A stretch of 64,000 nt of DNA from Planctomycetaceae bacterium. GTDB taxonomy: Bacteria > Planctomycetota > Planctomycetia > Pirellulales > Thermoguttaceae. Location: contig JAAYAY010000013.1 of the NCBI GenBank assembly GCA_012719125.1, positions 1-64,000 on the forward strand, written 5' to 3'. Under the pieces are notes generated by a model that made no database searches, was not told where the DNA came from, and worked only from the letters and a program-made list of their open reading frames with translations. Shown piece after piece: positions 12,055-26,454 of the stretch; position 1 is the first letter of the stretch, and each line of letters starts with the position of its first letter. The position numbers and the translations under genes were made by a program.

Positions 12055-12088
12055 GGTCGTGTCCTTTGCAGGTGGGGGACAGGAGTAA

Positions 12089-12166: not shown

Positions 12167-12349
12167 AGGGGTGACAGGGGAATATCAGGTGGAATGGTGG
12201 GGTGGTGGAACGATGGAATAATGGAATGGCGGAATGGTGTCGACGGACAGGAACAGCTCGGAAGAGAAGACGAGGAAGCACAGCATCCTTCCAGTATTCC
12301 AACGTTCCAGTATTCCCTTTGACCGAGGGGGTTCTTGCTCTCGCCCCGT

Positions 12350-13222
12350 TCACTCCTTTTCTTCCGGGATGTGAAGCTCTTGCATGGTTCGTCGCAGCCA
12401 GGCCAGGGATTTCTCGATCAGCGGGCCGCCCTGGCCTTCGCATTCCATGCTCAAGACGCCGTCAAAGCCATGATCGCGAAGCATTTCCAGGCATTGGCGG
12501 ATGTTGTCGGCGTTGACGCCGTCGCCGATGGCGCAATGGCTGATGGCAATTCCGGTATCCTTGCCGCGCAGCGACTCGGCCAGCGACGGGCTGACGTCTT
12601 TGACATGCACGTGGTCGATCTTGTGGATGAAGCGGCGGCAGAACTCGACGGGGTCCTGGCCGGCGATGAAGGAATTGCCCGTGTCGAAGTTCATCCGCAG
12701 GTTCGGTGAATCGACAAAGCCGAGCATGGCTTCGGCCTTATCCGGATCGGTGGTGAAGTAGCCGTGGACCTCGATGGTTGCCGTCACTCCGTAGGCTTCG
12801 GCCGTTCTCACGATCTGCTCGTAGCACCGCTGCATCATCACCATGGCCTGATCGTCCGAGAGGCCCTCGGGCGCGTGGAGCCCGTCGGTCGTGGCCACGT
12901 GATCGCAGCCGGCGTGGGCGGCCCACGGAATCGACTTGAGCACGTAGGGCAGGCCGATCGACGGACCGTCCTTGCCGCTGAGCGGATAGGCCGCGTCGAC
13001 CTGGCTGAACCGAACGCCGTACTTTGCCATCTTCTGCCGCAACAGCGCGGGGTCCTGGTAGAGGGCTACGTGGGGAAAGTAGCCCAGGCCGTGGATCCAG
13101 CAAGCGCCGTCGATCAGGCCGGGCTCGATGAAGTGCACGTCGTTGCGTTGAGCCCAGGCCAGCGCTTTCTCGAAAGAGAACGCGAACGAGTTGAACGCGT
13201 CGGTGTGGAATCCGATTTTCAT
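12350..13222 (-). CDS. Sugar phosphate isomerase/epimerase (xylose isomerase-like TIM barrel)
   Basis: 'MKIGFHTDAFNSFAFSFEKALAWAQRNDVHFIEPG' and later 'HVHVKDV' are typical of the AP endonuclease 2/xylose isomerase-like TIM family. Start at MKIG (RBS ggga). Confidence 0.8.
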   Translation of the reverse strand: MKIGFHTDAFNSFAFSFEKALAWAQRNDVHFIEPGLIDGACWIHGLGYFPHVALYQDPALLRQKMAKYGVRFSQVDAAYPLSGKDGPSIGLPYVLKSIPWAAHAGCDHVATTDGLHAPEGLSDDQAMVMMQRCYEQIVRTAEAYGVTATIEVHGYFTTDPDKAEAMLGFVDSPNLRMNFDTGNSFIAGQDPVEFCRRFIHKIDHVHVKDVSPSLAESLRGKDTGIAISHCAIGDGVNADNIRQCLEMLRDHGFDGVLSMECEGQGGPLIEKSLAWLRRTMQELHIPEEKE

Positions 13223-13357
13223 GTTCACTTTCCCTCGTGATGAAGGGCCAGTTTCGCGAAACGGCGTATGTTGCAGCGTCCCTGGCGTGTTGGGTTCAGT
13301 TCCGGAAACTCGGTTCTTCCTGGTTCCAGTGACACTCGGCAAGAGTCAGCCGCGGGG

Positions 13358-14149
13358 TTACTTTCTGGGCCCGGGCTCCAACCCGGCGGTCCAGGCACAT
13401 CCGCGGCGGTGCAGTTCCGCGGGACCTTCGGCCGCAAAGGCCGCCGTGTCGTGGCCGAGAACGGAATGGAAGACGCGGCCTTTGCCGTACTGGAGTACGA
13501 AGACCATCGGATAGACCTTGTGGTCGACCTTGGAGACGGCGGTGGCCAGCACGGTGATGGGAGTCTCGCCTTCCAGGCAGGAGTAGAGTTCGTCGACCGT
13601 GGTGAAATCTTCCATTCCCTTCACGATCGGATGGTCGACCTTGGCGGTGTTCACGGTGAACTCGCCGTGAGGGTCATGGCCCCGCCTGCCGGGAGGCGTC
13701 TTCGCGCCGAACCACACGCGGCCGGCGAGCCTGGTGAAATCGTCCTTGAATTCCTCGAACGCCCCGCAACCGAAGTGGAGGATCGTCAACCCGCCGCCTT
13801 GTTCGACGAACCCGGCCAGGTTGTCGAATCCCTTCCTGCCGGGCACCTCGGGATCGTAGTTTTTGAAGTGCAGGACGGCTGCGTCGTAGTCGGAAAGCCG
13901 AACCGTGGCCAGCGATTTCAGGTCGGTTAGGACGTCGACCGTCAGTCGGGGATCCTTTTCGAGTTCGGCCTTGACGACCGGATAGGTTTCCTTCCATTTA
14001 TGGCCCGGATAGTCTTCGCCGGTGATGAGGAGGATGCGTGCGCTCTCCTTTGCAGCCTCTCCGGCAGATGACTGGGCGGCAGGGAGAGCTACCAGGGCAC
14101 AGAAGCCCAGCATGAACAAGGCGGTTGTTACGCATCGATTCGCAGCCAT
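13358..14149 (-). CDS. ThuA-like (trehalose-utilisation ThuA / GATase1-like) domain protein, secreted
   Basis: Signal peptide 'TALFMLGFCALVALPAAQSSA'; ThuA-like core 'ILLITGEDYPGHKW...LHFKNYD...GGGLTILHFGCGAF...HPIVKGMEDF...VLGHD'. Confidence 0.8.
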   Translation of the reverse strand: MAANRCVTTALFMLGFCALVALPAAQSSAGEAAKESARILLITGEDYPGHKWKETYPVVKAELEKDPRLTVDVLTDLKSLATVRLSDYDAAVLHFKNYDPEVPGRKGFDNLAGFVEQGGGLTILHFGCGAFEEFKDDFTRLAGRVWFGAKTPPGRRGHDPHGEFTVNTAKVDHPIVKGMEDFTTVDELYSCLEGETPITVLATAVSKVDHKVYPMVFVLQYGKGRVFHSVLGHDTAAFAAEGPAELHRRGCAWTAGLEPGPRK

Positions 14150-14153
14150 GATG

Positions 14154-14765
14154 TCACCTGTTGCCTGGTTGTGGACAAGTTTGCCCCTGAAGGATGCTCA
14201 TAAGACCTCCGACGATCGTTCGTTGTTCTGCCGGGCAGGCGATGTGCGGCTCGTAGACGGCCCGCAGTTTGACTCCTTCGATGGCTGCCAGCATCAAGTC
14301 GACGGCAGCACGCGGATCGTCGACATGGGCCTGGCCGGCAGCCTTGGCGGCCGCGAGCAGCCCAATGTACAGTTCGCGCACCGAGTCGTAGAACTGCAAC
14401 CAGCCGGAGCGGACCTGTTCGTCCTTGAGCGAAAGGGCGAAGATCTCGGTGGTGAAGACTCGCGTGCTCTGATCGACGACGCAAGTCCGCACCGACATCT
14501 CGACGATGGCACGCAAACGCTGCAAGGGATCTCTCAAGCCCGCAATCGCGCGGTGCGCATTCTGTTGGTAAGCTCGATAGTAGTGCTGGCATGCGGCCAG
14601 CACAATCTCTCGCTTCGACTTGTAGTGGCTGTAGAAACTGCCCTTGGTCACACCCGCCCTGGCGGCGATCTCGTCGATCGTCACGGCATCGAATCCGTTC
14701 CGCCCGAACAGCGCGAAGGCGTTTTCGGCCAGGACGGCGGGCATTTGGGGCGCCAGACGGGGCAT
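14154..14765 (-). CDS. TetR/AcrR family transcriptional regulator
   Basis: N-terminal HTH 'FGRNGFDAVTIDEIAARAGVTKGSFYSHYKSKREIV'. It lies 5 bp upstream of the ThuA-like gene on the same strand. Confidence 0.85.
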   Translation of the reverse strand: MPRLAPQMPAVLAENAFALFGRNGFDAVTIDEIAARAGVTKGSFYSHYKSKREIVLAACQHYYRAYQQNAHRAIAGLRDPLQRLRAIVEMSVRTCVVDQSTRVFTTEIFALSLKDEQVRSGWLQFYDSVRELYIGLLAAAKAAGQAHVDDPRAAVDLMLAAIEGVKLRAVYEPHIACPAEQRTIVGGLMSILQGQTCPQPGNR

Positions 14766-14811
14766 TCAGGTCTCCTTGGAACCGAAGGATCTATCGTACC
14801 GCGACGTTTAA

Positions 14812-14827
14812 GATACTCATGGGTATC
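14812..14827. promoter_or_regulatory. Imperfect 16-bp palindrome in the divergent TetR / Tat-oxidoreductase promoter region (candidate TetR operator)
   Basis: 'gatactcatgggtatc' (GATAC-N6-GTATC) between the TetR start (14765, minus) and the oxidoreductase start (14972, plus). Confidence 0.35.
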
Positions 14828-14971
14828 CTACATGTCAACAGGCGAGCCAGCAGCGGCCGCTGTGGAGTTCCGCAGGAATGGTTGACAGGGAACCTGCCGA
14901 GGGACTACGATCAGCCTCGTCGGTCCCGGTACAATACTGCCAGGTATGCCCATTGTTGTCAGGAGTCGGCC

Positions 14972-16276
14972 ATGGCAAACACGCATCGCATTCCATCGCG
15001 TCGGGACTTTTTGAAGGCGTCGGCCACGGCCGGAGTGGCCGCCTGCGGCCTGTCGGTCGTCCGTGGGGCCCATGCAGCCGGGAACGAATCGATCAAGGTC
15101 GGGATGATCGGCTGCGGCGGGCGGTGCAGCGGGGCGGGCGCCCAGGCCCTGAGTGCCGGCCCGGATGTGAAGTTGGCCGCCATGACCGACGTTTTCGAGA
15201 ACCGCATGCGGGCCAAGCAGCAGTACTTCAAGACGAAGTACCCCGACCAGTTCGTCGCCAAGGACGACGCTTGCGTGTTCGGTTTGGACGGGTACAAGCG
15301 GGTGATCGAGGAATCGGACGCGGTGCTCATTGCCTGCGCGTCGAAGTTTCATGCCTACTATGCCGAGAAGGCAATCGAGGCCGGCAAGCACGTGTTTATT
15401 GAAAAGCCCCACGCCATCGATCCGGGCGGCTGCCGGCGGCTGAAGCGGGTTGCCAGGATGGCTGCAGAGAAGGGGCTCTCCTTCGTGTCGGGCCACGAGA
15501 GCCGCTACAGTTTCCCGTACCAGGAACAGGTCAAACGGATTCACGACGGGGCGATCGGCGACGTGGTGGCGATCCAGTCGATGTTTCTTCGCGCGCCCTA
15601 TCGCGTGGTCGCCCGCGATCCGAAGCTGAGCGAGACGGAGTACCAGTTCTCCAATTTCTACCACTTCCGCTGGCTGTCGGGCGACGACGTGCCGCAGTCC
15701 TTGGTACACAACCTGGATCGCATGCGGTGGGTGCTCCACGAGGAGAATCCCACCTGGTGCTTCGGGCTCGGCGGCCGCTCGAGTTCCTTTGGCGAGGTGT
15801 TCGGCGACATGTTCGACCACGGCACGGTGGTTTACGAAATGCCCAGCGGGGTCCGCGTCTACGCCATGTGCCAGACGCAGGCCGGCTGTTATCCCAATTG
15901 GGACGACATCATCATGGGCACCAAGGGGACCTGCCACTGGACGGCCTGCAAGATCGAGGGCGAAACGAGTTGGCGGTACGAAGGTCCGAAGAACGATCCG
16001 CACACCGAAGAGCAGAAGATCCTCATCGGGTCGATCCGCGCCGGCCAGCCCGTCAATCACCAGGACACGATGATCGACAGCACCTACATGGGCGTGATGG
16101 GGCAGATTGCCGTCTACACGGGCAAACAGGTCACGTGGGACCAGGTGCAGGCCGCCGACTTCGAGTTCGGTCCCAAAGTGGATGAAGTCACGCTCGACAT
16201 GGCCCCGCCGACTGTGCCGGACGAGACGGGCAATTACCCGCTGCCGTTGCCGGGGATCACGAGCTTTGAGCTGTGA
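14972..16276 (+). CDS. Gfo/Idh/MocA family oxidoreductase with Tat signal peptide (paralog of 10729-12054)
   Basis: RBS 'aggag' 7 nt upstream of ATG 14972; Tat 'SRRDFLKASATAGVAACGLSVVRGAHA'; 'KVGMIGCGGRCSGAGAQAL'; C-terminus 'PDETGNYPLPLPGITSFEL' parallels the paralog. Confidence 0.85.
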   Translation: MANTHRIPSRRDFLKASATAGVAACGLSVVRGAHAAGNESIKVGMIGCGGRCSGAGAQALSAGPDVKLAAMTDVFENRMRAKQQYFKTKYPDQFVAKDDACVFGLDGYKRVIEESDAVLIACASKFHAYYAEKAIEAGKHVFIEKPHAIDPGGCRRLKRVARMAAEKGLSFVSGHESRYSFPYQEQVKRIHDGAIGDVVAIQSMFLRAPYRVVARDPKLSETEYQFSNFYHFRWLSGDDVPQSLVHNLDRMRWVLHEENPTWCFGLGGRSSSFGEVFGDMFDHGTVVYEMPSGVRVYAMCQTQAGCYPNWDDIIMGTKGTCHWTACKIEGETSWRYEGPKNDPHTEEQKILIGSIRAGQPVNHQDTMIDSTYMGVMGQIAVYTGKQVTWDQVQAADFEFGPKVDEVTLDMAPPTVPDETGNYPLPLPGITSFEL

Positions 16277-16321
16277 GCTATGAGCTGTGAGCTGTGAGGG
16301 AGCGGGGGATGGCAAGACCGG

Positions 16322-17356
16322 TCAGAGGATTTCGTCCATGGGGACGCGGCGGCCGGTCTTGACGGACATCTGGGTGGCCAGGCACATGGCGACGGACCAC
16401 TTGCCGTCTTCGCCCGTGCAGGGGGAGGGGGTCCCATCGCGGACGGCGGAAACCATGGCGGCGATCTGCTCCTCCAATTCGTAGAGTTCACCGGCGCCGC
16501 GGGTGACGGGGATCTCTTCGAGTTTTTCGCCGTCAAACGCCTTGAGGAAGAAGGAGGCCTTGCGCACCCGGTCCATGGCGCCGCTCCAACTGGCCCAGAT
16601 GGCGCCTTTCGTACCGGTCAGCTTGACGGTCTGGTGGTGTTCGAAGGCGGCCAGGGTTTGCGAGACGACGGCGTAGGCACCGCCGGTGAAGTGCATGATG
16701 GCGCTGCAGTTGTCCTGCAGTTCCGGATGGTCGGGCTGGCGGGAGTTGGCGGCGGCATAGACCGATTCGGGCTGCCCCACGCTGCTCAGGTACCAGCGGG
16801 CCAGATCGAAGAAGTGGATCGGCTCTTCCAGGATCCAGTCGCCGACACGATTGATGTCGAAACGCCAGCCATCGGAGCCCAGCCGATAGGGGTTTCGCGA
16901 CAGCTCGACCAGCACGTATTGAGGATCGCCCACGACGCCGTCGTCGATCAGTTTCTTCACCGTGCCCCAGAGAGACGAGAGGCGGAACTCGTGGTTGACG
17001 GCGATCCGCAGATTCTTCGCCTTGGCCAGTTGCAGGAGATCGTCGCACTCCTTCATGGTCAGGCACATCGGTTTTTCGAGCAACAGGTGCTTGCCCGAGG
17101 AGAGGACGGCCGAGGCGACTTCGTGGTGCAGGCGATTGGGCACGATGACGTCGACGACGTCGAGGTCGTCGCGCCCGACGAGTTCCCGATAGTCGGCCAC
17201 AACGGCTGCCTCGGGATGGGCCTGTTGGGCGGCGTTCCTGGATTCTTCCGACCGTTCGGCGATAGCGACGAGTTGGGCATCCTCCGCCTTGGCGATCGAG
17301 GCGGCATGGTGCTGTCCCCAGGCGCCGTAGCCGATGAGTCCGAAACGTATGGGCAT
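16322..17356 (-). CDS. Gfo/Idh/MocA family oxidoreductase (cytoplasmic, no signal peptide)
   Basis: 'MPIRFGLIGYGAWGQHHAASIAKAEDAQLVAIAER' Rossmann N-terminus; 'LLEKPMCLTMKECDDL'. Confidence 0.85.
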   Translation of the reverse strand: MPIRFGLIGYGAWGQHHAASIAKAEDAQLVAIAERSEESRNAAQQAHPEAAVVADYRELVGRDDLDVVDVIVPNRLHHEVASAVLSSGKHLLLEKPMCLTMKECDDLLQLAKAKNLRIAVNHEFRLSSLWGTVKKLIDDGVVGDPQYVLVELSRNPYRLGSDGWRFDINRVGDWILEEPIHFFDLARWYLSSVGQPESVYAAANSRQPDHPELQDNCSAIMHFTGGAYAVVSQTLAAFEHHQTVKLTGTKGAIWASWSGAMDRVRKASFFLKAFDGEKLEEIPVTRGAGELYELEEQIAAMVSAVRDGTPSPCTGEDGKWSVAMCLATQMSVKTGRRVPMDEIL

Positions 17357-17597
17357 GGTGTGGTCCTTTCTTCATCAACCGCTATTGGACGCCAATGTCC
17401 AAGATGGTGTCTGTACCGCCCTTTCAGGGCTGCTTTGGTGTTGGATTCGTGCCCCAGGGCGGCGCTTCGCTCTGCCCTGGGCTGATATGTTGCTGCCCCT
17501 GTCGGGGCGACGGACTTTGCAGAGGAAGAGGATCGGCTGTGATCGTGTCTATCCTCGTTTCTGTTTCTCTCCCCTTATCAGCGTCTATCAGCGTTCA

Positions 17598-19136
17598 TCA
17601 GCGGTGCCCTAGACGAACTTCGTCACGCCGGGCACGGCGAGGGGATAGCTCCCGTCGTCGTTGGGCAGGATGGGCGGATTGGCGCCAGGGATTCTCGCCC
17701 TCGATTCGGTTTTTCATCAGGTCGCAGGTGCCTTTGGTGCCGAGGATGATGTCGGACGTCTCGTTGGCGCAGCCGGCCATCCGGCGGCAGTGGGAGTAGA
17801 GCCGCCTTCCGCCGGCGAATTCGTAGGTCACGCAATGGTGGTCGAAGATATGGCCGATGGTGATCTCCGAACGAACCTGGCGGCCGCCGGTGCCCCAGAT
17901 TTTTTCGGGGAGCTGCTGGTTCAGCCAATCGCCGCCGGGGGCCAGGGGGTCCTGGACGTCGGGCTGAACCTTCGATGCGTAGAAGGCCGCCGTTCCACCG
18001 GCAATTCGCAGAACCGCCATATTGATCCCGAGCCGTTTCAACTCCGGCATCACCGTCTTGGGGTGTCGATCCTCGCGCACATGGAGCCAGACTCCACGGA
18101 CCTCCTCGTTCGGCGGTTCCGCATAGACGGCATTTACGTCGACCGTTTGTTCCAGAACGCTGTCGCCCAAGTGCGCACGCACGACGAGTTGGCGCCGGCC
18201 GTTCACCTTGGCCGCTGTCGGTACCTTGATCGAGAAATGCCGGACCGTGGCGCCGGCCATCGTCGCATCGGGTCGGTTCGCGTTCTCCACCTCGATCGTC
18301 GCGCCGTCGCATTCCAGGCGGACCTCCGGCGTGCCGGCACATCCGGCGGCGGCGTGATAGACGGCATCCAGTCCGGCAGCAACGAGGCATTCCGAGGGGG
18401 AAATGCACAGTTGAGGCGTCTTGATGATGGCGGCGATACGTTCTTCCGCCGGTACGTCGGGTCGCAGCCAGGCCAGGAACCCCTTGAGCAGTCTTGCGTC
18501 GTCGCCGCGCGGGGCCGCCGAAGCGCTGCCGCCCGGGATCGCCAAGGCCAGGCCGGTGCTGATCACCTTTCCGCGGCCCAATTGGCCGGCGACGGCCACG
18601 GGTTGGCCGTGTTCGTTTTCGATGAGGATTGCGCCTTTGGGACCGACGCGTTCGACGATGTGATCCTCATAGCTCGACTGGAAGTCCTTCATTCCCTTCA
18701 CAGCCGGATGGTCGGCTCGCACGTGCATCGCGCGACTGCCGTAGACCCGCTGCACCCCCGCGCCGACTTCCGAGAAGATGTGATGGTGCCAGGTTTGGAG
18801 GACGCTTCCACCGGCCTCGACGTAATCGTTGAGACTCTTTCGCCACTGCTTGTGCACGTTGCCCGGATTATGCATGTCGGAGAGATAGACCAGGTCGAAC
18901 ACGCACAACGTGACCGGCTGCAGATCGGCAATGCGCCGGGCATCGTATCCCTGCGATTGCAGCCCTTGCAGCAGGCCGTCGACGGCTGCGCCTTGTCCGC
19001 CCGCGGCCTGCTGGTCGAAAACGGCGATCTTCAGCCTCGTTTCCGCGTCTGCCGAAAACGCGTTCTCTTTGGCCGCAGCAACCAGGCCGACGAATGTCGA
19101 CAACAAGACAGCAAGCACGAATCGGATGGTTCTCAT
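17598..19136 (-). CDS. Secreted ThuA-like domain protein with truncated GHL10 (DUF4015-like) start, chimeric with the oxidoreductase remnant at its 3' end
   Basis: Signal 'MRTIRFVLAVLLSTFVGLVAAA'; ThuA-like/GATase1-like 'LKIAVFDQQAAGG...VFDLVYLSDMHN...GGSVLQTWHHH'. GHL10-like start 'EVRGVWLHVREDRHPKTVMPELKRLGINMAVL', then merges into the Gfo/Idh/MocA-like tail from about 17990 downwards. Confidence 0.6.
   Translation of the reverse strand: MRTIRFVLAVLLSTFVGLVAAAKENAFSADAETRLKIAVFDQQAAGGQGAAVDGLLQGLQSQGYDARRIADLQPVTLCVFDLVYLSDMHNPGNVHKQWRKSLNDYVEAGGSVLQTWHHHIFSEVGAGVQRVYGSRAMHVRADHPAVKGMKDFQSSYEDHIVERVGPKGAILIENEHGQPVAVAGQLGRGKVISTGLALAIPGGSASAAPRGDDARLLKGFLAWLRPDVPAEERIAAIIKTPQLCISPSECLVAAGLDAVYHAAAGCAGTPEVRLECDGATIEVENANRPDATMAGATVRHFSIKVPTAAKVNGRRQLVVRAHLGDSVLEQTVDVNAVYAEPPNEEVRGVWLHVREDRHPKTVMPELKRLGINMAVLRIAGGTAAFYASKVQPDVQDPLAPGGDWLNQQLPEKIWGTGGRQVRSEITIGHIFDHHCVTYEFAGGRRLYSHCRRMAGCANETSDIILGTKGTCDLMKNRIEGENPWRQSAHPAQRRRELSPRRARRDEVRLGHR
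17609..17990 (-). pseudogene. Frameshifted C-terminal remnant of a Tat-type Gfo/Idh/MocA oxidoreductase, read through by the upstream ORF
   Basis: In the 17598-19136 frame: 'WGTGGRQVRSEITIGHIFDHHCVTYEFAGGRRLYSHCRRMAGCANETSDIILGTKGTCDL..RIEGENPW' aligns with the paralog C-termini ('GLGGRSASFGEIYGDMFDHHTVVYE...IIMGTKG...FEGETNW'). The final 'PNDDGSYPLAVPGVTKFV*' lies in a different frame (stop 17609-17611), matching 'PDETGNYPLPRPGITELT*'. Confidence 0.5.
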
Positions 19137-19196
19137 GGGTGACTTTCCTGCTTTGCACGGCGTGGAAGTCCAGCAGCTTTCGTCAACGGTTTGCAG

Positions 19197-20111
19197 TCAA
19201 CCCGGTCTAGCGGCCGCCTTCTTCTGCACGGACAATTGCCATTCCATTCGAATTAGGATGGCCAGCGAAGCGAGGATGATCGCACCTCCGAGCCATTGCA
19301 GAGGCGACATGTTCATTCCCCAGAGGGGCCATTCCACGGCCGCGGTCAGGACGGGACCGGCGAGCATGAACATTCGCAACTTCCAGACGTCCAGGCGCCG
19401 CAGGGCGAAGTAGTACAAGGGGAGCGACAGCGCAACCAGTGCACCGAGGGTGAGGAAGGACAGGGCGGCCATTGGCGAGGCGAACACATCGGTCAGGCGG
19501 GCAAAGTCGCCGCCCACAAGGCCGAGGCCGATGAAGCCCAGCATGCTGCCGGCGTGGTTGTAGAATGCAACGGGCGATTCTTCCATCGTCCGCATGATGT
19601 GGCGGATGATGAAGGCGTTGACGGAGAATCCGAAGGCCGCGCCGACGGTCATGGCGTCGCCGAGAATATGCCCGCCCCAGTCGAACGCGTGAATCTCCAC
19701 GAGGAGAGCGAGCCCGACGGCCATCACCGGAATCAGAGCCAGTTGGCGCAGACCGATGCGTTCCAGCCCCAATGCGGACCCGATGAGGACGACAAAGACG
19801 ACATCGCATCGGATCAGCATGCCGACGTTCGTTGCCGTGGTCCATCGCACGGCGTTGAACCAGAGGAGGTTGATGAAGACGGCGATCAGCGCCATGAGAA
19901 TCAGCCAGCCGCCCTGGCCCCGCGGCCGCAGGCTTCGCCATCCCGCTCCGAATGCGGCGATCCAGAGGAGGAGCAGCGGCAACGACACGGCACGGGAAGA
20001 CGCGCCTACCAGCCCGACGGGCCACCCTTGGATGCTGATCAGCCAGCGCACCATGAGCGTCACGGCGACCCAGGGGACGATGGCGAGTGAGGCGTAGAAG
20101 GCGGTCTTCAT
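19197..20111 (-). CDS. DMT superfamily (EamA-like) transporter
   Basis: About 10 hydrophobic helices across 304 aa, EamA-like duplication; 'MKTAFYASLAIVPWVAVTLMV...'. Confidence 0.75.
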   Translation of the reverse strand: MKTAFYASLAIVPWVAVTLMVRWLISIQGWPVGLVGASSRAVSLPLLLLWIAAFGAGWRSLRPRGQGGWLILMALIAVFINLLWFNAVRWTTATNVGMLIRCDVVFVVLIGSALGLERIGLRQLALIPVMAVGLALLVEIHAFDWGGHILGDAMTVGAAFGFSVNAFIIRHIMRTMEESPVAFYNHAGSMLGFIGLGLVGGDFARLTDVFASPMAALSFLTLGALVALSLPLYYFALRRLDVWKLRMFMLAGPVLTAAVEWPLWGMNMSPLQWLGGAIILASLAILIRMEWQLSVQKKAAARPG

Positions 20112-20203
20112 ATTCGGGCATTCTGATTCCCGGTTCTGAATCGGTGTCGCATCTCGTGTTCTCGCGGCTCAAAGGACGCGTCTCGGCGCCGATCGCCGGT
20201 GCC

Positions 20204-21646
20204 CTACGCATCGACTCCCAGGCTGATGTGTTTCGTTTCCAGGTAGGCGTCGATCCCCTCGACGCCGAGTTCGCGTCCCCAGCCGCTCTCTTTCAGACCG
20301 CCGAAGGGGCACTGGCTGGTGGCGGGAACCGTGTCGTTGATCCCGATCGTGCCGGCCTCCAGTCCCTCGGCCAGCCGCCAGGAGCGCGACAGGTCTCGCG
20401 TGAATGCGTAAGCCGCCAGGCCGTATCGGGTGTCGTTGGCCTTGCGGATAACCTCCGCTTCTTCGTCGAAGACACAGACCGGGAGCACGGGCGCGAAGGT
20501 CTCTTCTCGCATGCAAAGGGCCTGGTCGGACATGTCGGCGAGAACGGTCGGTTCGAGGAAGTAGCCGGGGGCGCCCTCCCAACGCTTTCCGCCGCAGAGA
20601 ACCTGAGCACCGCGGCCGGTGGCATCTTCCAGGTGTTTCAGGGCGTTTTCGAGTGAGGGCTCGTCGATGAGAGGACCGATTTCGACGCCTTCTTCCAGGC
20701 CGGGGCCGACTTTCAATTGTCTCGCGGCATCGACCAACGCAGGAATGAACCGGTCGGCAACCGAACGCTGGACATAGACGCGGTTGGCGGCGATGCACGA
20801 CTGGCCCGTATTGCGGAATTTGGCGATGATCGTGCCCTGAACCGCCTTGTCGAGATCGGCGTCGTCGAAGACGATGACGGGCGCGTGGCCGCCCATTTCG
20901 AGGGAGAGCTTCGTCACGTTGTCGGCGGCGCCTCGAATGAGCTGTTTGCCGACGACCGTCGAACCGGTGAAACTGATCTTGCGGCACAGCGGATTGCCGA
21001 GCATTTCGGCGCCGATCTGGCTCGAACTGCCGACGACAAGCTGAAACACGCCGGCCGGAAGCTTTGCTTCGTCGACGGCTTCGGCCAGCATGACGGCGCT
21101 GAGCGGGGTGGCGCTAGCCGGCTTGAGAACGACCGGACAGCCGGCGGCCAGTGCGGGAGCAACCTTGCGGGCGGCGAGGACCAAAGGGAAGTTCCAGGGG
21201 GGAATCGCTCCGACAACGCCGATGGGCGAACGAATGACGAGGTGCCGCTTGCTGCCCGCCTGTTGGGGAACGACGCGGCCGTAGATGCGCTGGGCCTCGC
21301 CGGCAAACCAGCGGAAATGGTCGACCGTCATCGCCACTTCGCCGCGGCTCTGAGGGAGCGGTTTGCCGTTTTCGAGCGTGATCGTGTGAGCAATTTCCTC
21401 GCTTCGGCGCTCGAGGATGTCGGCGATCCCGGCGAGGTAGCGTCCCCGATCGCGACCGGGCGTGTTGCGCCAGGCGGGCCAGGCAGCGGCCGCGTCTTGA
21501 ATTGCCTGAGCGACGGTCTCGCGAGGGACGGTGCCCACATGGGCGAAGACCTCGGTGGTGGCCGGGTTTGTTACCGGGAGCGGGTCCTGGGGCTCCAGCC
21601 ACCGGCCGTTCAGATACAAGCGGCGAATGTCGGTGTTTCCTGACAT
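20204..21646 (-). CDS. NAD(P)-dependent aldehyde dehydrogenase (succinate/malonate-semialdehyde dehydrogenase-like)
   Basis: 'FTGSTVVGKQL', 'LEMGGHAPVIVFDDADLDKA', catalytic 'GQSCIAANRVYV'. Start at 'MSGNTDIRRLYLNGRW' with RBS aggag; the upstream 161 aa of the track ORF are an R-rich artefact. Confidence 0.85.
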   Translation of the reverse strand: MSGNTDIRRLYLNGRWLEPQDPLPVTNPATTEVFAHVGTVPRETVAQAIQDAAAAWPAWRNTPGRDRGRYLAGIADILERRSEEIAHTITLENGKPLPQSRGEVAMTVDHFRWFAGEAQRIYGRVVPQQAGSKRHLVIRSPIGVVGAIPPWNFPLVLAARKVAPALAAGCPVVLKPASATPLSAVMLAEAVDEAKLPAGVFQLVVGSSSQIGAEMLGNPLCRKISFTGSTVVGKQLIRGAADNVTKLSLEMGGHAPVIVFDDADLDKAVQGTIIAKFRNTGQSCIAANRVYVQRSVADRFIPALVDAARQLKVGPGLEEGVEIGPLIDEPSLENALKHLEDATGRGAQVLCGGKRWEGAPGYFLEPTVLADMSDQALCMREETFAPVLPVCVFDEEAEVIRKANDTRYGLAAYAFTRDLSRSWRLAEGLEAGTIGINDTVPATSQCPFGGLKESGWGRELGVEGIDAYLETKHISLGVDA

Positions 21647-21666
21647 GATGGAGGCTCCTTGCTCAA

Positions 21667-22329
21667 CTACTGTTCCGGAGTGGCGTTCCAGGCGTTCTGG
21701 AAGAGCTGTTCTCCCATGGTGGTGTAAGGGTTGCGGAAGCTGTCCTGGTAAACGGCCATACCGGCGGTGATGCAATGGGCGCCGGCCAGAGCGGCTTCGG
21801 CGATGTGGCGGCTGTTGCGGACGGCAGCGGCGATGATCTCGGCGCGATAGTCGTAGTTCTCGAGCATGACGGCCACCTCGGGGATCAGCGACTCGACCGG
21901 GTCGCCGTACTGTTCCTTCCAGCCGACGAACGGACTGACGAAGGCCGCACCGGCTCGGGCCGCCTGCCACGCCTGCGCCACGGAGAAGATCAGGGTCGCA
22001 TTGACCCGTACGCCCCGGTTGGTCAGTTCGCGAATCGCCTTGAAGCCCTGTTCGCTCACGCCGACCTTGATGACGAAGTTGGGCGAGATCTTCGACAGTT
22101 CCAGCCCTTGGTCGACCATTTTCTCCCAATCGGCGAGGTTCGGATCGACTTCGACGCTGACCTCCTTCGTCGTGCCGTCAAACAGTCCGGCGATTTCTTC
22201 GATCACCGTGCGGAAGGGTTTGCCCGAGTCTTTCACATGCTTGGGATTCGTGGTGATGCCGTCGATATCCCACAGATCGAGGGCGTAGCGAATCTCGTCC
22301 GTCTTCGCGCTGTCGAGAAACATCTTCAT
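21667..22329 (-). CDS. Transaldolase-family aldolase (fructose-6-phosphate aldolase / TalC-like, MipB family)
   Basis: 'MKMFLDSAKTDEIRYALDLWDIDGITTNPKHV' ... Schiff-base lysine context 'NFVIKVGVSEQG' ... 'NATLIFSVAQAW'. 220 aa. Confidence 0.85.
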   Translation of the reverse strand: MKMFLDSAKTDEIRYALDLWDIDGITTNPKHVKDSGKPFRTVIEEIAGLFDGTTKEVSVEVDPNLADWEKMVDQGLELSKISPNFVIKVGVSEQGFKAIRELTNRGVRVNATLIFSVAQAWQAARAGAAFVSPFVGWKEQYGDPVESLIPEVAVMLENYDYRAEIIAAAVRNSRHIAEAALAGAHCITAGMAVYQDSFRNPYTTMGEQLFQNAWNATPEQ

Positions 22330-23198
22330 GATTGGATCAGCCTCTGCAAGTATTGGTTGTTTTTCTTCGTATCTTCGATACAGTCTTCGATGCTGTCGTG
22401 GCCCGTCTCGTAGACGTACCAGCCGTCGTAGCCGATTTCGTGGAACGAGCGGAACGCCGCGGGCCAGTCGATCGGCCCCGGCTGTTCGATCAGGTCGTTG
22501 CCGTTCTTGACATGGACCATGGCGATCCGCTTCTTGCCGAGCAGTTCGATGCCGGGAACGGCCTGGTCGCCGTGTCCGTAGAAGTCCATGTTGTGAAGGT
22601 CGTAGTAGACGCCGACGCCCGGATGGTCGACCAGATCGACGAGCTTCTTGTTCTCGGCCGGGCTGAGCGAGTTCTCCAGGCCGATGACGACACCGGCGTC
22701 GGCGGCCTTTGGGGCCACCTTCTTGAGCATGGAGACGATCGGGCCATAGGACGCCTCGTCGGCCATATCGGGAGCGTCGCCGCGGAAGAAGGCAGCGAGG
22801 ATCACGCCGGCGCCGAGCATTTCGGCGGCGCGGATCGAGGCGAGGATGCTCTCGGCGGCGCCGGGGCTGTGGATCGTGACCCCGCGATCCAAGATCCCGG
22901 CCAGGGACGGGACCTTCATGCCGTGGCGTTCGGCCTCCTTCTTGTAGTGGCGAACGGTGTCCCAGTCGCGCAGGTTGGGTGAGCCGGCCGTGGCCTGCAG
23001 TTCGACGCCGCGAAGGCCGGGAATGCTGGCGGCCACCTTAAACACTTCGGGCGTGCCCGCCATCTTCATGCTGGCGGCCCGGATACCGATCTTCAACGGC
23101 TCCGGCTGTGCCGCAGACGCGCTGCGGACGAAACACGCCGAAACGGTTGTGAACGCGGTTGCCTGGAGGAATCTGCGACGCGTTAGCCTGGTTGACAT
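22326..23198 (-). CDS. Sugar phosphate isomerase/epimerase (xylose isomerase-like TIM barrel) with Tat signal peptide
   Basis: Tat 'TRRRFLQATAFTTVSACFVRSASAAQ'; TIM-barrel motifs 'GLRGVELQ', 'HVKNGND'. 4-bp ATGA overlap with the downstream aldolase gene. Confidence 0.8.
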   Translation of the reverse strand: MSTRLTRRRFLQATAFTTVSACFVRSASAAQPEPLKIGIRAASMKMAGTPEVFKVAASIPGLRGVELQATAGSPNLRDWDTVRHYKKEAERHGMKVPSLAGILDRGVTIHSPGAAESILASIRAAEMLGAGVILAAFFRGDAPDMADEASYGPIVSMLKKVAPKAADAGVVIGLENSLSPAENKKLVDLVDHPGVGVYYDLHNMDFYGHGDQAVPGIELLGKKRIAMVHVKNGNDLIEQPGPIDWPAAFRSFHEIGYDGWYVYETGHDSIEDCIEDTKKNNQYLQRLIQS

Positions 23199-23243
23199 TC
23201 CACACCTCCTGTTTCGAGCATTTGTAATTCGGGATTAGGGTTT

Positions 23244-23265
23244 GTTTCGTATTTCGAGATTCGGA
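23244..23265. promoter_or_regulatory. Conserved motif 'GTTTCGTATTTCG(A/G)GATT' upstream of the TIM-barrel/aldolase/ALDH operon; second copy at 24137-24154
   Basis: 'gtttcgtatttcgagattcgga' at 23244-23265 and 'gtttcgtatttcggattt' at 24137-24154, the latter preceded by the half-copy 'ggttcgtattgcgag'. They occur only in these two minus-strand promoter regions, directly downstream of the ROK regulator. Confidence 0.45.
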
Positions 23266-23306
23266 CATCGTCGTGCAAGATAAGGGAAAACTGCCCATGA
23301 CACAAC

Positions 23307-24113
23307 TCACGTGGTCAGCTCATCCACCGACGCATTCATGAACTCCTTGTGTTTGTCGCCGACCCAATACCGGGCGCCGGCAAGGCACCAGAGGAAGTGC
23401 AGCTCTTCCTCCTGGCTGAAGACGGGATGGTAGTTGAGCAGCGGAATCGTGGCCGCGTCCATCGTTTCCATGCTGTGCACGAAGGTCTTTGATTTTTCGT
23501 CGGCATAGACCTCGATCGCCCCGCGACCTTGGGTGAACAGATAGATCTCCTCCTGGTCGGTGTGGTTGTGGGGCGGCCAGGCCCGCGTGTAGGGCTCGTA
23601 GATCGTGTAGCCGGCCATCAGCCGGTCGGCCCCTTCGGTCACGTCGAACATGAGGAAGACGTCCTTGCCGTCGAGGTGGCGAATGCGTGCCTCGTTGGTG
23701 CGAAACTCGTTCCACACGGAGTGGAACACGGGATGACGCTTCTCCGCCGGCGCTCGGCAGACGACCAGCGATTGAGTCTCACTGGTTGGGTTCTGGATTC
23801 GGTAGGGCGTCGCCATGGGGACATAGAGCGTGTCGTAGTGCGCCATGGAATACCCTTGGCCATCGACTTCCACGGCGAGCGGTTCCGAGGTCATGCAGAA
23901 GAGGAGGGCCTCCTCGCTGCGGTGAAACAGTTCATCGGACGACGTCCCGGGCGCGACTCGATAAACGCCGTAGGTGAGCAGGTCGAGGTTCGAGTTGGCC
24001 GGGTTGGACTTCTGTCGGTATTCGAATTGCCAGTCGTCCGCCCGAAGCAGATTGGCCGGCTTGACCGCCGGTTCCGCTCCGGACGACGGGTCTGAGACAT
24101 TTGCGTTTTGCAT
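23307..24113 (-). CDS. KduI/IolB-family cupin isomerase (5-deoxy-glucuronate isomerase-like)
   Basis: 268 aa, two cupin-like halves; 'LAVEVDGQGYSMAHYDTLYVP' and 'HNHTDQEEIYLFTQGRGAIEVYADEKSKTF' resemble the KduI/IolB family. Family-level call only. Confidence 0.55.
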   Translation of the reverse strand: MQNANVSDPSSGAEPAVKPANLLRADDWQFEYRQKSNPANSNLDLLTYGVYRVAPGTSSDELFHRSEEALLFCMTSEPLAVEVDGQGYSMAHYDTLYVPMATPYRIQNPTSETQSLVVCRAPAEKRHPVFHSVWNEFRTNEARIRHLDGKDVFLMFDVTEGADRLMAGYTIYEPYTRAWPPHNHTDQEEIYLFTQGRGAIEVYADEKSKTFVHSMETMDAATIPLLNYHPVFSQEEELHFLWCLAGARYWVGDKHKEFMNASVDELTT

Positions 24114-24161
24114 TTTGGACTTGGTTCGTATTGCGAGTTTCGTATTTCGGATTTGAAGCGA

Positions 24162-25415
24162 CTACGGCGTTGCTCTGACCGGTTCCGCAACGCAAGCCGT
24201 TTCGTGGTGGTTGTTTCGCTGATCGACCAGCGTCGTTTCGTCTTCGGGGTGGAGCCTGGCGAAACCGAGGTACGCGACGCCCAGGGCTCCTGCGAAGCTG
24301 CCCAACGATCCGGTCTGCAGGGAGGTGACTTCGAGGATCTGCGGAAGGGTGAACTTCCGGAAGGTACGCTCCATCTTCCGGCTCACACGTTCGCAGCAAC
24401 TGGGGACCTCACCGGCCAGGATGATCGTTTCGGGTGAGAACAGGTTGGCCAGGTTGGCGGTGACCATTCCCAGGTGGGTGCCCAGCAGTTCCAGGCGATC
24501 TTGCAGCAGTTCGTCGCCGGCTTCCGCGGCCGCGATGATGTCGCCCAGCGAGAGATCGTCGGCTTTGTCGAGCAGGGCCTGACGCTTTGCCTCGCCTTGA
24601 CGGGAGCGGAGCAGCCGCAGTGTGTCTTCGACGAAACCCGTGGCCGAGATCAGGTCGGTCATGGCCTGGGGGCCGTCGCCCGATGGAAACACGGTGTAAC
24701 CAATTTCGCCCGCGAAGCTCCCAGCACCGGCGTAAAGCTTGCCGCTGATGACGATGCCGAGACCGACGCCGGACCGAACCGCCAGGCAGAGGAAGTTATG
24801 GCGACCGCGACCGGCCCCGCGCAACAGTTCGCCGTAGGCAACGGCGCGGATGTTGTCTTCGACGAACACGGGTACGTCGAAGGCCTGCTGGAAGTGCTGA
24901 AGCAGCGGCACGTCGTCGAAATCGGGGAGCAGCCCGTAGTGGAGTACCCGTCCGCCCAGACAATCGACCTGGCCGGGGGCAGCAACTCCAACGGACAGCA
25001 ACGGGCGATCGGCCCGCCCGGCGAGTTGCCGAGACAGGTCGACGATCCTCTGCAGGACGGTCTTGCGGGCGAGGTGCGAGCGAAAGGGAATTTCCTCCCG
25101 GCAGAGCGGGTTGCCGGCAAAGTCGCAGAGCACGGCGCGTGCCCGCAAGGCCTCGAAATCGAGCCCTAGAAAACAGCCGTGGTCCGGATTGAGTTGCAAG
25201 GGGACGGGTGTGCGTCCACGCCGCGTGGGCGACGATTCGCCTTCCAGCAGCACACACTCTCGGAGGAAGTCGCCCACATAGGTCCCCACCATGGCGGCAT
25301 TGATATTGAGCCGTCTTGCCAAGTCGAACCGCGAGCACCCACCGCCACGAAACAACTCGTTGAGGATGCGGTTTTTTTTGGCGGCAAGCTTGGTTTCGCG
25401 AGGTTTGGGACGCAT
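24162..25415 (-). CDS. ROK family transcriptional regulator (NagC/XylR-like; N-terminal wHTH + ROK sugar-kinase-like domain)
   Basis: wHTH 'RILNELFRGGGCSRFDLARRLNINAAMVGTYVGDFL'; ROK core 'LGLDFEALRARAVLCDFAGN', 'GSGVGLGIVISGKLYAGAGSFAGEIGY'. Confidence 0.85.
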   Translation of the reverse strand: MRPKPRETKLAAKKNRILNELFRGGGCSRFDLARRLNINAAMVGTYVGDFLRECVLLEGESSPTRRGRTPVPLQLNPDHGCFLGLDFEALRARAVLCDFAGNPLCREEIPFRSHLARKTVLQRIVDLSRQLAGRADRPLLSVGVAAPGQVDCLGGRVLHYGLLPDFDDVPLLQHFQQAFDVPVFVEDNIRAVAYGELLRGAGRGRHNFLCLAVRSGVGLGIVISGKLYAGAGSFAGEIGYTVFPSGDGPQAMTDLISATGFVEDTLRLLRSRQGEAKRQALLDKADDLSLGDIIAAAEAGDELLQDRLELLGTHLGMVTANLANLFSPETIILAGEVPSCCERVSRKMERTFRKFTLPQILEVTSLQTGSLGSFAGALGVAYLGFARLHPEDETTLVDQRNNHHETACVAEPVRATP

Positions 25416-25776
25416 GAGGCAACCTGGGGCGAGAACGTGAGCGGCGGCTATTTAATATGATAACAAAAATAATATTGTCAAGACGCCCGCTCAGGGGAAG
25501 CTGGGCGTGCGAAACCGAGAAGGGTGCAGAGAGGTGCCACCCAAACTCCCTGGGGCACCGAAGAGACACGTGGGCCGGAAGAGCTGCCACCGCCGCGAGG
25601 GATTCGGAGCGTATTACCCCTTTTCTGGTGGCAGGGTCAACACTATGGGTGTTGCCCTTCCGTTCTCGCCACGATGATGGGGGGCACCTTCCAGGGAAAC
25701 CGAGAGAGACGGCGCCCAGTTCCGGGGGCCGTTGCCCGAACGGCGGTTAGGGGGCTGATTAGCGATCGGGGAGAAT

Positions 25777-26211
25777 TCAGCAAGCGCCGGCCGTCGTTTG
25801 ACGCTGCCGGGCGCGATCCTCGGCCAGTTGCGGCATCCACAACGCCTTGTCGACCAGTTCGACCAGAACGCCGGGATCAAACGGCTTCCGCAGGTAGTAG
25901 GTGCCGCCCACTGCATGGCTGCGCCGGATGATGTCGGGGATCTGGGCTCCGGAGAGGAACATCACCGGCACGCTTTTCAGTTCAGCGTCTTCTTTGATCC
26001 GCTCGCACATTTCCAGTCCGCTGTGGCCGCCCAGATTGATGTCGGAGAGGATCATATCGGGCGTGTGCATGGCGGCAAACTCGATGGCCGCCTGGGCCGT
26101 GTCGCAGCACTGGCAATCGAACCCGGCCTCGGTCAACACATTGGCCACGTTCTCCAGCACTTCCTTCTCGTCATCCACGACCAGAATCAACGGGGCTTCT
26201 TGAGTCTTCAT
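25777..26211 (-). CDS. Stand-alone response regulator receiver (CheY-like)
   Basis: 'LILVVDDEKEVLENV...DMILSDINLGGHSGLEMCERIK...VMFLSGAQ'; 144 aa, no output domain. Confidence 0.8.
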   Translation of the reverse strand: MKTQEAPLILVVDDEKEVLENVANVLTEAGFDCQCCDTAQAAIEFAAMHTPDMILSDINLGGHSGLEMCERIKEDAELKSVPVMFLSGAQIPDIIRRSHAVGGTYYLRKPFDPGVLVELVDKALWMPQLAEDRARQRQTTAGAC

Positions 26212-26454
26212 CTGCCTGTTGTGTCTCCGAGAAAGAACGGGGGCCGAACACGGCGAGCAGCGTGTCTAGCTGCTCTGCCAATCGTTGTTTCGGTTCTCGA
26301 CCGCCGGACAAGTTAGCCTGGCTTGCCCTGCCCCCCTGATCAAAAAAGCCGGATCTTCCAGAACGGGATCGGCGGCACGATCTGCAGAATCGACCCCCTT
26401 GACGGAGGAGTCGTTTGTTTCTCCGCGAAGTCCGGAAGCCATCGTCTCAAACCG

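Follow-up and report, generated by a model that had tools for sequence, protein, structure and literature searches.

Introduction

Sulfoquinovose (SQ), an abundant sulfosugar of plants and algae, is made at about 10 billion tonnes per year and constitutes a major pool of organic sulfur (PMC12890257, PMC13436972). The described system closest to the locus reported here is the sulfo-transaldolase pathway (sulfo-TAL, also called sulfo-SFT) known from Bacillus aryabhattai SOS1 and B. megaterium DSM 1804 (SftI/SqvD, SftT/SqvA, SftD/SlaB and SftE; PMC7491151, PMC9594981), in which an isomerase is followed by a 6-deoxy-6-sulfofructose (SF) transaldolase (TAL) and an NAD(P)+-dependent 3-sulfolactaldehyde (SLA) dehydrogenase, together with a membrane transporter. 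The reviews consulted give this pathway for Firmicutes, Thermotogae and Chloroflexi only (PMC12890257), and mention neither bacteria of the Planctomycetes-Verrucomicrobia-Chlamydiae (PVC) superphylum nor a KduI/IolB-like isomerase. Here, we describe an operon of the same kinase-free enzyme logic in a planctomycete, located on a 64,000-nucleotide stretch of Planctomycetaceae bacterium (GCA_012719125.1, contig JAAYAY010000013.1, positions 1 to 64,000) that we call the window. Based on its sequence and gene context, on which the whole pathway reading rests, we propose that this ROK-regulated operon probably serves the catabolism of a 6-deoxy-6-sulfo-hexose, most likely SQ or its glycosides, by a sulfo-TAL variant without a kinase that would use a cupin as the isomerase. 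Our literature search, which left subscription literature outside its scope, found no publication linking KduI/IolB-like cupins or PVC bacteria to SQ degradation.

The resemblance to the Bacillus pathway extends from the order of the reactions to the proteins, as the TAL is about 49% identical and keeps the catalytic triad and the Trp/Arg sulfonate residues, and the aldehyde dehydrogenase (ALDH) falls in the same GabD-like group. Unlike the Bacillus clusters, the operon lacks a FucI-family isomerase, a DUF4867 protein, a GH31 sulfoquinovosidase and a GntR/DeoR regulator; it contains instead a KduI/IolB-like cupin, a ROK protein, a TIM barrel exported by the twin-arginine translocation (Tat) system, an EamA protein in the place of TauE, and a Gfo/Idh/MocA oxidoreductase. 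An original prediction made from the same DNA had proposed isomerization, C-C cleavage and aldehyde oxidation without a kinase; this logic holds, as in the sulfo-TAL pathway, but the substrate and the enzyme classes that it named do not. The five genes at the core of the operon are as follows.

24162-25415, minus strand: ROK-family transcription regulator, presumed operon repressor (417 aa; PF00480, 118 bits; HTH_24, 19.5 bits)
23307-24113, minus strand: KduI/IolB-superfamily bicupin, proposed SQ-to-SF isomerase (268 aa; PF04962, 46 bits)
22326-23198, minus strand: Tat-exported, metal-dependent xylose-isomerase-like TIM barrel (290 aa; PF01261, 98 bits)
21667-22329, minus strand: class-1 transaldolase, orthologue-like to the SF transaldolase SftT/SqvA (220 aa; PF00923, 139 bits)
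20204-21646, minus strand: GabD-like NAD(P)+-dependent ALDH of the succinic semialdehyde dehydrogenase (SSADH) type, proposed SLA dehydrogenase (480 aa; TIGR01780, 547 bits)

The transaldolase carries the signature of sulfofructose enzymes

Among all PDB sequences, the top match of the TAL is BmSF-TAL of B. megaterium (8bc3/8bc4), aligned over its full length at 229 bits (3e-67) and 49% identical to 8bc3 by BLAST, while the TAL of Thermotoga maritima (149 bits) and the fructose-6-phosphate aldolase (FSA) of Escherichia coli (72 bits) score lower. A summary of the residues assigned in the BmSF-TAL structure (PMC11659671) lists a catalytic triad (D6/K89/E61), two sugar-orienting residues (N111/S133) and a sulfonate-orienting 'WAR' motif that includes W138. 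All of the listed residues are kept in the window TAL (D6, E60, K88, N110, S132, W137 and R171), which has a Lys instead of an Arg at position 30. The 2023 structure paper by Snow et al. reportedly speaks of an 'Arg-Trp-Arg triad'. In ordinary transaldolases, the position of this Trp is held by the phosphate-binding Arg, and T. maritima has GR there.

A Glu/Phe pair marks the active site of transaldolases, whereas FSA has Gln59/Tyr131, which lets free dihydroxyacetone leave, as known from FSA/TalB engineering work. The window enzyme has Glu60 and Phe134; this pair, along with the 72 bits to FSA, rules out the FSA-type non-phosphorylating aldolase suggested by the original prediction, and the dihydroxyacetone unit should therefore pass to an acceptor aldehyde rather than be released. 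Homology and signature residues together make a strong case that the cleavage enzyme is an SF-type transaldolase, and the catalytic step is predicted on these same grounds. Lys88 would form a Schiff base with SF, and the C1-C3 dihydroxyacetone unit would be moved to glyceraldehyde-3-phosphate or erythrose-4-phosphate, giving fructose-6-phosphate or sedoheptulose-7-phosphate plus SLA.

The aldehyde dehydrogenase has an anion site

The ALDH gene starts at an ATG that follows an AAGGAG ribosome-binding site, and the 641-aa open reading frame (ORF) listed for this gene is an over-extension. Its product scores 480 bits against E. coli GabD and 435 bits against 8c54, which we take to be RlGabD, the SLA dehydrogenase of Rhizobium leguminosarum. 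In RlGabD, Asn163, Glu261 and Cys295 are proposed to be catalytic and Arg171/Arg289 to serve the sulfonate (PMC10599462). Residues W151-N152-F153, R160, E250, R278 and C284 of the window ALDH reproduce the spacing of these catalytic and two-arginine anion-site residues, and characterized SLA dehydrogenases are likewise GabD-like. The ALDH is also 73% identical to its counterpart in a distant cluster (L003, described below).

These residues argue for a short aldehyde with an anionic end as the predicted substrate, over an IolA-type or lactaldehyde enzyme, but do not discriminate between SLA dehydrogenases and true SSADHs. The scores agree in rank: 547 bits for the SSADH model vs 388 for lactaldehyde dehydrogenase and 284 for GAPN. 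No methylmalonate-semialdehyde (IolA-type) model appeared among the 25 listed ALDH model matches, and the label of IolA-like ALDH given earlier is thus replaced by SSADH/GabD-like. By homology and the conserved anion site, this enzyme would oxidize SLA to sulfolactate.

A cupin of the KduI/IolB superfamily is the candidate isomerase

The SQ isomerases SftI/SqvD (PF02952, FucI family) and YihS (PF07221) were found neither in the operon nor among the other scanned ORFs of the window, nor were they among the annotated genes of related clusters. With the Pfam KduI/IolB family, the cupin scores 46 bits (gathering threshold 23.9), but it reaches only 29 bits with the IolB equivalog model (TIGR04378, cut-off 205) and 22 bits with that of KduI (NF002091, cut-off 250). 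The description of a KduI/IolB-like cupin therefore holds for the family and the KduI-like fold, whereas an identity as IolB or KduI is ruled out by these scores and by the gene context. More than 1100 homologues were found, of which the best 120 are 63-93% identical and span Planctomycetota, Verrucomicrobiota and Acidobacteriota, the closest being from Thermoguttaceae and other Planctomycetota. Judged from these sequences, the cupin is a separate and very conserved branch of the superfamily.

Residues H182, H184, E189 and H229 are invariant across 54 homologues and align with the HxH...E...H motif of KduI. Furthermore, a profile of these 54 members matches KduI structures with an E value of 9e-8, at an identity of about 18-20%. 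The AlphaFold2 model is confident in the N-terminal barrel only, and the structures that it matches best are those of KduI and an IolB-like protein. An identity as the DUF4867 protein (SftX/SqvB) was rejected, with no PF16161 match at E up to 0.01 and no match to DUF4867 in sequence or fold.

KduI (5-dehydro-4-deoxy-D-glucuronate isomerase, EC 5.3.1.17) and IolB (5-deoxy-glucuronate isomerase) both perform aldose-ketose isomerization on sugars that bear an anionic group at the far end. By analogy, the conversion of SQ to SF is the same transformation, with a sulfonate at C6. The window cupin shares with both the PF04962 family, the bicupin fold, the motif in the C-terminal barrel and the chemistry expected on an anionic-ended sugar. 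It differs from them in forming its own branch below both equivalog cut-offs, and its partners are TAL and ALDH (with SuyAB-like proteins and TauE in relatives) instead of KduD, KdgK, KdgA or the iol set. Since the family chemistry fits, the metal ligands are conserved and the cupin is the only cytoplasmic isomerase candidate in the operon, we propose that this metal-dependent cupin would isomerize SQ, the aldose, to SF.

Gene context in related genomes

Relatives of the cupin were sought by scanning one genome per species, which yielded 301 loci, and the best 80 were examined. The roughly 300 species-level genomes with this cupin branch belong to Planctomycetota, Verrucomicrobiota, Lentisphaerota and Acidobacteriota; the best 80 of the 301 loci are mostly from PVC bacteria, with Acidobacteriota and one Bacteroidota, and include a single cultured carrier, Kolteria novifilia Pan216 (L036). 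Neighbours were counted by BLAST of the ORFs lying up to 10 kb from the cupin gene, over a set of 85 non-redundant loci that includes many incomplete ones (numbered L001 onward where one must be named).

Gfo/Idh/MocA: 36 of 85 loci
ALDH: 34 of 85 loci
TAL: 32 of 85 loci
ROK: 28 of 85 loci, adjoining the cupin gene
NagB-like: 28 of 85 loci
MFS transporter: 19 of 85 loci
PIG-L deacetylase: 18 of 85 loci
Tat TIM barrel: 9 of 85 loci
SuyB-like: 8 of 85 loci
TauE: 7 of 85 loci
ThrC-like: 7 of 85 loci
YeiH family: 4 of 85 loci

Among the 33 loci in which the cupin gene is flanked by at least 8 kb on each side, ALDH is present in 15 and TAL in 12. Genes for the cupin, ALDH and TAL sit together in members of Planctomycetota, Verrucomicrobiota and Acidobacteriota, and in differing arrangements, so that the grouping is not a matter of chance. 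The variation of gene order between these phyla speaks for functional coupling and against inherited synteny. No YihS-type or FucI-type SQ isomerase, kinase or GH31 sulfoquinovosidase was found in the Pfam-annotated related clusters.

Four loci illustrate the range of arrangements. The close relative L085 has ROK-cupin-TIM-TAL-ALDH, then a 99-aa SAF protein, a 389-aa GD_AH protein, a PF03601 membrane protein of the YeiH/SuyZ family and EamA. L087 reads ROK-cupin-ALDH-TAL-Tat Gfo-TauE, and L003 cupin-SSF-Gfo-DUF1080-TIM-TAL-ALDH-NagB-like-PIG-L-SAF-GD_AH. ThrC-like, PGDH-like and RidA genes come after ROK-cupin-ALDH-TAL in L001, and an aminotransferase gene stands three genes further on; judged from sequence, this set could convert sulfolactate to sulfopyruvate, cysteate and then pyruvate.

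These arrangements bear on the fate of sulfolactate, which would be exported or degraded elsewhere, and desulfonated where SuyAB-like genes exist. Genes for a SuyAB-like lyase and a YeiH/SuyZ-like exporter lie directly downstream in close relatives. The pairs of about 100-aa SAF and about 389-aa GD_AH proteins in L085, L022, L024 and L003 have the sizes and family of SuyA and SuyB, the (R)-sulfolactate sulfo-lyase of Paracoccus pantotrophus, and the YeiH/SuyZ-family protein that follows the pair in L085 recalls its exporter SuyZ; in contrast to that system, such genes are absent from the window and were seen in relatives only.

The TALs adjoining the cupin in related loci split into two classes. 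Class 1 (e.g. L001, L005-L025 and L036) has Trp138 and P[R/K]H and is 48-54% identical to BmSF-TAL. Class 2 (e.g. L003, L024, L028 and L042-L079) has Arg138 in GRLD and is 52-59% identical to T. maritima TAL; it is mostly from Verrucomicrobiota, with SuyAB-like or ThrC-like genes still adjoining.

Two further gene sets accompany the cupin in relatives. A pyridoxal-phosphate-dependent ThrC-like enzyme with an N-terminal zinc ribbon continues several verrucomicrobial clusters, L001 (13022-15763), L046 (5408-6655), L020, L021, L025, L065 and L076, and is followed by a PGDH-like 2-hydroxyacid dehydrogenase and, in some loci, RidA. An assignment of this PALP protein as CuyA was ruled out by its ThrC-like sequence, its zinc ribbon and its passing of the threonine synthase model; its cysteate synthase score is 78 bits. 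These clusters may encode a non-orthologous desulfonation route through sulfopyruvate and cysteate. The second set consists of a PIG-L/LmbE-type N-deacetylase and a NagB-like protein that has the motifs MDEY and GIGINGHIAFNEP, both adjoining the cupin in, for example, L009 (9746-11433), L046 (10725-12314), L055-L058, L067 and L068; in some of these loci the only other neighbour is a major facilitator superfamily (MFS) transporter, and TAL and ALDH are lacking. This pairing hints at an N-acetylated amino (sulfo)sugar substrate outside the described sulfoglycolysis pathways. No NagB-like, PIG-L or SuyAB-like gene was found in the window.

Operon layout and regulation

The ROK, cupin, TIM barrel, TAL and ALDH genes lie at the predicted coordinates in one co-directional run on the minus strand of the window, whose G+C content is about 62%; as had been noted, the run has neither a kinase nor IolD. 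The extent of 20204-25415 given to it before holds for the genes within, but the unit runs further, to EamA and probably to 16322, so that the extended unit covers 16322-25481 and takes in the transporter and a conserved Gfo/Idh/MocA gene. The candidate control elements are the following.

25454-25481, minus strand: sigma-70-like promoter (TTGACA, 16-nt spacer, CATATT), set in AT-rich sequence some 40 nt upstream of the ROK start codon
24123-24149, minus strand: exact 13-mer CGAAATACGAAAC between the ROK and cupin genes, adjoined by a degenerate copy; candidate for an operator or leader element
23244-23256, minus strand: CGAAATACGAAAC again, as an exact copy between the cupin and TIM barrel genes

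The promoter candidate matches the consensus at 10 of 12 positions and is the top site within 16000-26400, no terminator-like site was found on the minus strand between 25415 and 16322, and the stop codon of the TIM barrel gene and the start of the TAL gene overlap by 4 nt. The single promoter-like site, the lack of internal terminators and this overlap argue for a single operon. Good ribosome-binding sites precede the TIM barrel and ALDH genes.

The ROK protein combines an N-terminal winged helix with a ROK domain, and NagC and Mlc models align over nearly its full length. Its 417 aa fit the size of regulators and not that of kinases. It resembles the NagC/Mlc repressors in the winged helix, the sugar-binding ROK domain, a length of about 410 aa and a gene at the operon head, but differs in scoring far under the equivalog cut-offs (98 of 650 bits for NagC, 96 of 530 for Mlc). 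The His and CxCGxxGC residues that typically make up the zinc motif of ROK proteins are apparently absent, and the sequence reads AGEIGYTVFPSGDG there. We suggest that ROK would repress the unit from the promoter near 25470 until the pathway sugar binds.

Both exact copies of CGAAATACGAAAC in the window lie in intra-operon spacers, ahead of the cupin and TIM barrel genes, and the close relatives L085 (9938-9966) and L005 (around 9826) have similar CGAAA(T/C)ACGAA repeats upstream of their cupin genes. The count was matched in 5 of 100 shuffles at 2 mismatches, so that the statistics alone are weak. From their sequence and position, the repeats may be an operator or leader motif. An Rfam scan of the operon, including the CGAAATACGAAAC spacer, gave no match.

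Proposed uptake, possible glycoside cleavage and neighbouring genes

The first step of the proposed pathway would be the release and/or uptake of the sulfosugar, with EamA involved. The Tat TIM barrel, possibly with Tat and cytoplasmic Gfo/Idh/MocA proteins, might conceivably cleave the glycoside by a 3-keto route. The Tat signal proposed for the TIM barrel can be read directly in its N-terminus, MSTRLTRRRFLQ...ASA-AQ, which contains a twin-arginine motif (TRRRFLQ), and it was present in every case inspected. The structural model has a pLDDT of 89, and the tetrad E175/D200/H229/E264 is invariant in 43 homologues. Its superfamily suggests a ketose 3-epimerase or a 3-keto-glycoside epimerase or lyase, predicted to be periplasmic; fold searches gave epimerase, lyase and deglycosidase matches alike, with IolI and IolE among the distant ones.

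The 3-keto-glycoside 1,2-lyases and hydratases (AL1/BT1, AtOGE and AtHYD) are characterized by a secreted TIM barrel with an E-D-H-E metal site and a Tat Gfo/Idh/MocA 3-oxidoreductase as partner. The similarity of the TIM barrel to the proteins of periplasmic 3-keto-glycoside cleavage by AL1-AL4/BT (bioRxiv 10.1101/2024.03.25.586180) and to the C-glycoside deglycosidases DgpA/DgpBC is very low in sequence, and in fold it matches ketose 3-epimerases and YcjR as well as or better than these. Unlike AL1-AL4/BT, the operon has no DUF1080 gene, two copies being located 17 kb away, and the Tat-Gfo within the run is only a fragment. Counted over the whole window, there are two intact Tat-Gfo genes and one fragment of such a gene, two DUF1080 genes and a second TIM barrel; around the cupin in relatives, the full trio is found in L003, and Tat-Gfo genes in L009, L036 and L087. 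That the sulfosugar is freed oxidatively from its glycoside in the periplasm is a reasonable guess, which we hold as doubtful.

The remaining genes of the extended unit are listed here.

19197-20111, minus strand: EamA/DMT-family membrane transporter, importer or sulfolactate exporter (PF00892)
17598-19136, minus strand: chimeric or truncated ORF of 512 aa with a signal peptide, combining the N-terminus of a GHL10 protein with a Tat Gfo/Idh/MocA fragment
16322-17356, minus strand: cytoplasmic Gfo/Idh/MocA oxidoreductase, 65% identical to the Gfo/Idh/MocA protein of the Luteitalea cupin cluster L002

L005 and L085, both close relatives, have an EamA gene in the corresponding position. An importer role is mildly favoured by analogy with L085, where EamA is the only transporter besides the YeiH/SuyZ-family protein and sulfolactate may be degraded in place. 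The ORF at 17598-19136 has no Pfam match of its own. Its first ~437 residues align at 59% identity with the N-terminal portion of a glycosyl-hydrolase-like 10 (GHL10, PF02638) protein of ~700 aa, encoded after EamA in L005 (14030-16147). An ~85-aa fragment (residues 405-485) matches an internal part of a Tat Gfo/Idh/MocA that occupies the equivalent position in L009, and two genes seem to have been fused here by a deletion or rearrangement. The cytoplasmic Gfo scores 74 bits with FlSqgA and 92 bits with 1,5-anhydrofructose reductase, and matches SqgA structures, though not as its best hits; from its sequence, glycoside cleavage or 3-keto-sugar reduction are candidate roles.

A second sugar-oxidation module adjoins the operon at 10729-16276 and, with the gene at 16322-17356, accounts for the nearby Gfo/Idh/MocA genes that the original prediction had correctly pointed out.

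10729-12147, minus strand: Tat Gfo/Idh/MocA
12350-13342, minus strand: TIM barrel
13358-14149, minus strand: ThuA
14154-14765, minus strand: TetR regulator
14591-16276, plus strand: Tat Gfo/Idh/MocA, 59% identical to the one at 10729-12147, the true start probably being internal, near the Tat motif at residue ~136

Two tandem DUF1080 genes lie on the plus strand at 40332-41063 and 41081-41851; this 3-keto-disaccharide hydrolase family includes the alpha-glycoside lyase/hydratase of the gut-bacterial 3-keto-glycoside pathway. Three long coding-like ORFs, at 53184-56210 (1008 aa), 33881-36325 (814 aa) and 49599-50585 (328 aa), gave no Pfam match at E up to 1e-4.

Alternative readings

Several observations weigh against SQ catabolism by a cupin-dependent sulfo-TAL route. 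No sulfoquinovosidase of the known kinds is identifiable in the window (neither a GH31 YihQ/SftG nor an oxidoreductase that is specifically like the GH188 enzyme SqgA). Known sulfo-TAL clusters have the canonical SftI/SqvD isomerase and a DUF4867 protein, neither of which is present here, so that the cupin is assigned as the isomerase by elimination. The conserved C-terminal half of the cupin is poorly modelled by AlphaFold2 (pLDDT <50). A periplasmic TIM barrel has no role in the known pathway, and EamA could transport in either direction. The SuyAB-like pairs of relatives are only ~35-45% identical to annotated UxaA-family proteins, and no tie to characterized SuyAB was made: NCBIfam gave a weak galactarate dehydratase match, the PDB only galactarate dehydratase, and tblastn against plasmids only the annotation 'UxaA family hydrolase' at up to 45% identity. 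Furthermore, the second set of related clusters has a canonical-type TAL with Arg at position 138, and many cupin homologues adjoin NagB-like and PIG-L genes or stand alone, with no TAL or ALDH within 10 kb, so that the substrate of the cupin may be broader or different.

The last two points would also fit a pathway in which 6-O-sulfated hexoses or hexosamines, such as glucose-6-sulfate or N-acetylglucosamine-6-sulfate, are degraded without a sulfatase, the sulfate ester acting as a phosphate mimic. The cupin or a NagB-like protein would give fructose-6-sulfate, the TAL glyceraldehyde-3-sulfate and the ALDH 3-sulfoglycerate, from which a beta-elimination enzyme (SuyAB-like, or the PGDH-like/aminotransferase/ThrC-like set) would remove sulfate. 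PVC bacteria specialize in sulfated glycans, the relatives carry NagB-like (28 of 85), PIG-L (18 of 85), PGDH-like, ThrC-like, RidA and YeiH 'sulfate exporter' family genes, and the canonical TAL of many clusters keeps the phosphate-site Arg. We nevertheless consider this reading unlikely for the window, where the TAL has the Trp138-type pocket of the sulfonate enzyme, NagB-like and PIG-L genes are missing, and the ALDH is SSADH-like (547 bits) and sized for succinic semialdehyde or SLA instead of GAPN-like (284 bits); moreover, we know of no precedent for a sulfate-ester 'glycolysis'. A related view is that the cupin defines an unrecognized sulfosugar regulon reaching beyond SQ, widespread in the PVC superphylum and Acidobacteriota, with an amino-sulfosugar or 6-O-sulfated hexosamine as substrate. 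Its frequent pairing with NagB-like and PIG-L genes and the two TAL classes (Trp138 and Arg138) suggest such substrates, and the regulon would amount to a 'glycolysis' independent of sulfatases, in which the sulfo group is retained until a C3 acid is reached and is only then eliminated; we regard this as rather unlikely.

Another possibility keeps SQ and the sulfo-TAL route but makes the cupin a ring-opening or mutarotase-type helper, like DUF4867 (SftX/SqvB), the isomerase being the TIM barrel, a NagB-like protein or some other enzyme. Known sulfo-TAL clusters do carry a conserved DUF4867 cupin without a settled function (PMC11968277, PMC9594981), the operon has a xylose-isomerase-like TIM barrel, and NagB-like genes accompany the cupin in many relatives. 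However, the TIM barrel is Tat-exported wherever inspected and is confined to 9 of 85 loci, a NagB-like gene is missing from the window, the cupin resembles the KduI isomerase family and not DUF4867, and the only cytoplasmic enzymes of L001 and L087 are cupin, ALDH and TAL, which leaves this variant quite improbable. A neutral 6-deoxyhexose of the quinovose, fucose or rhamnose type could pass through the same three chemical steps, with a 6-deoxy-ketose from which TAL frees lactaldehyde, and the ALDH does reach 388 bits with lactaldehyde dehydrogenase models. Its top scores with SSADH models, its two conserved anion-site arginines and the sulfonate-pocket residues of the TAL make this very unlikely, and the TauE, YeiH and SuyAB-like genes of relatives would have no role for neutral sugars. 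The inositol/uronate catabolism of the original prediction, a non-phosphorylative cyclitol/uronate route with the cupin as IolB/KduI, the TIM barrel as IolE/IolI, an FSA-type aldolase for IolJ and the ALDH as IolA, drew on the Pfam family of the cupin, the distant IolI and IolE fold matches and the Gfo/Idh/MocA genes nearby. It is highly improbable, as the cupin falls far below the models (29 of 205 bits for IolB, 22 of 250 for KduI), the ALDH is GabD-like, the TAL has a transaldolase signature and is nearest to SF transaldolases, the TIM barrel is exported, and the window has none of the iol set (iolC, D, E, G, J, A) and no IolC, IolD, IolG, KduD, KdgK or KdgA genes; the SuyAB-like, TauE and YeiH/SuyZ-like genes of relatives point to organosulfonates.

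Implications

If an SQ-degrading sulfo-TAL variant is indeed encoded here, what is already known is its logic and its signature transaldolase; what would be new, as judged from sequence, is the cupin family, the ROK regulator and the PVC host. The cupin would represent a third, unrelated type of SQ isomerase, and SQ a new substrate class for the KduI/IolB family. Surveys of SQ degraders use markers such as YihQ, SqgA, YihS, SftI and SftT, and their pathway definitions come from Proteobacteria, Firmicutes and Actinobacteria. A sulfo-TAL-type route that current markers mostly miss would be carried by about 300 species-level genomes from Planctomycetota, Verrucomicrobiota, Lentisphaerota and Acidobacteriota, phyla that are abundant in soils, sediments and fresh water and have so far stood outside the recognized SQ degraders. 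Furthermore, the pairs of exported TIM barrel and Gfo/Idh/MocA proteins hint at a non-hydrolytic freeing of the sulfosugar from sulfolipid head groups. Some carriers would couple the route directly to the desulfonation of sulfolactate, which would make them complete rather than partial mineralizers of SQ.

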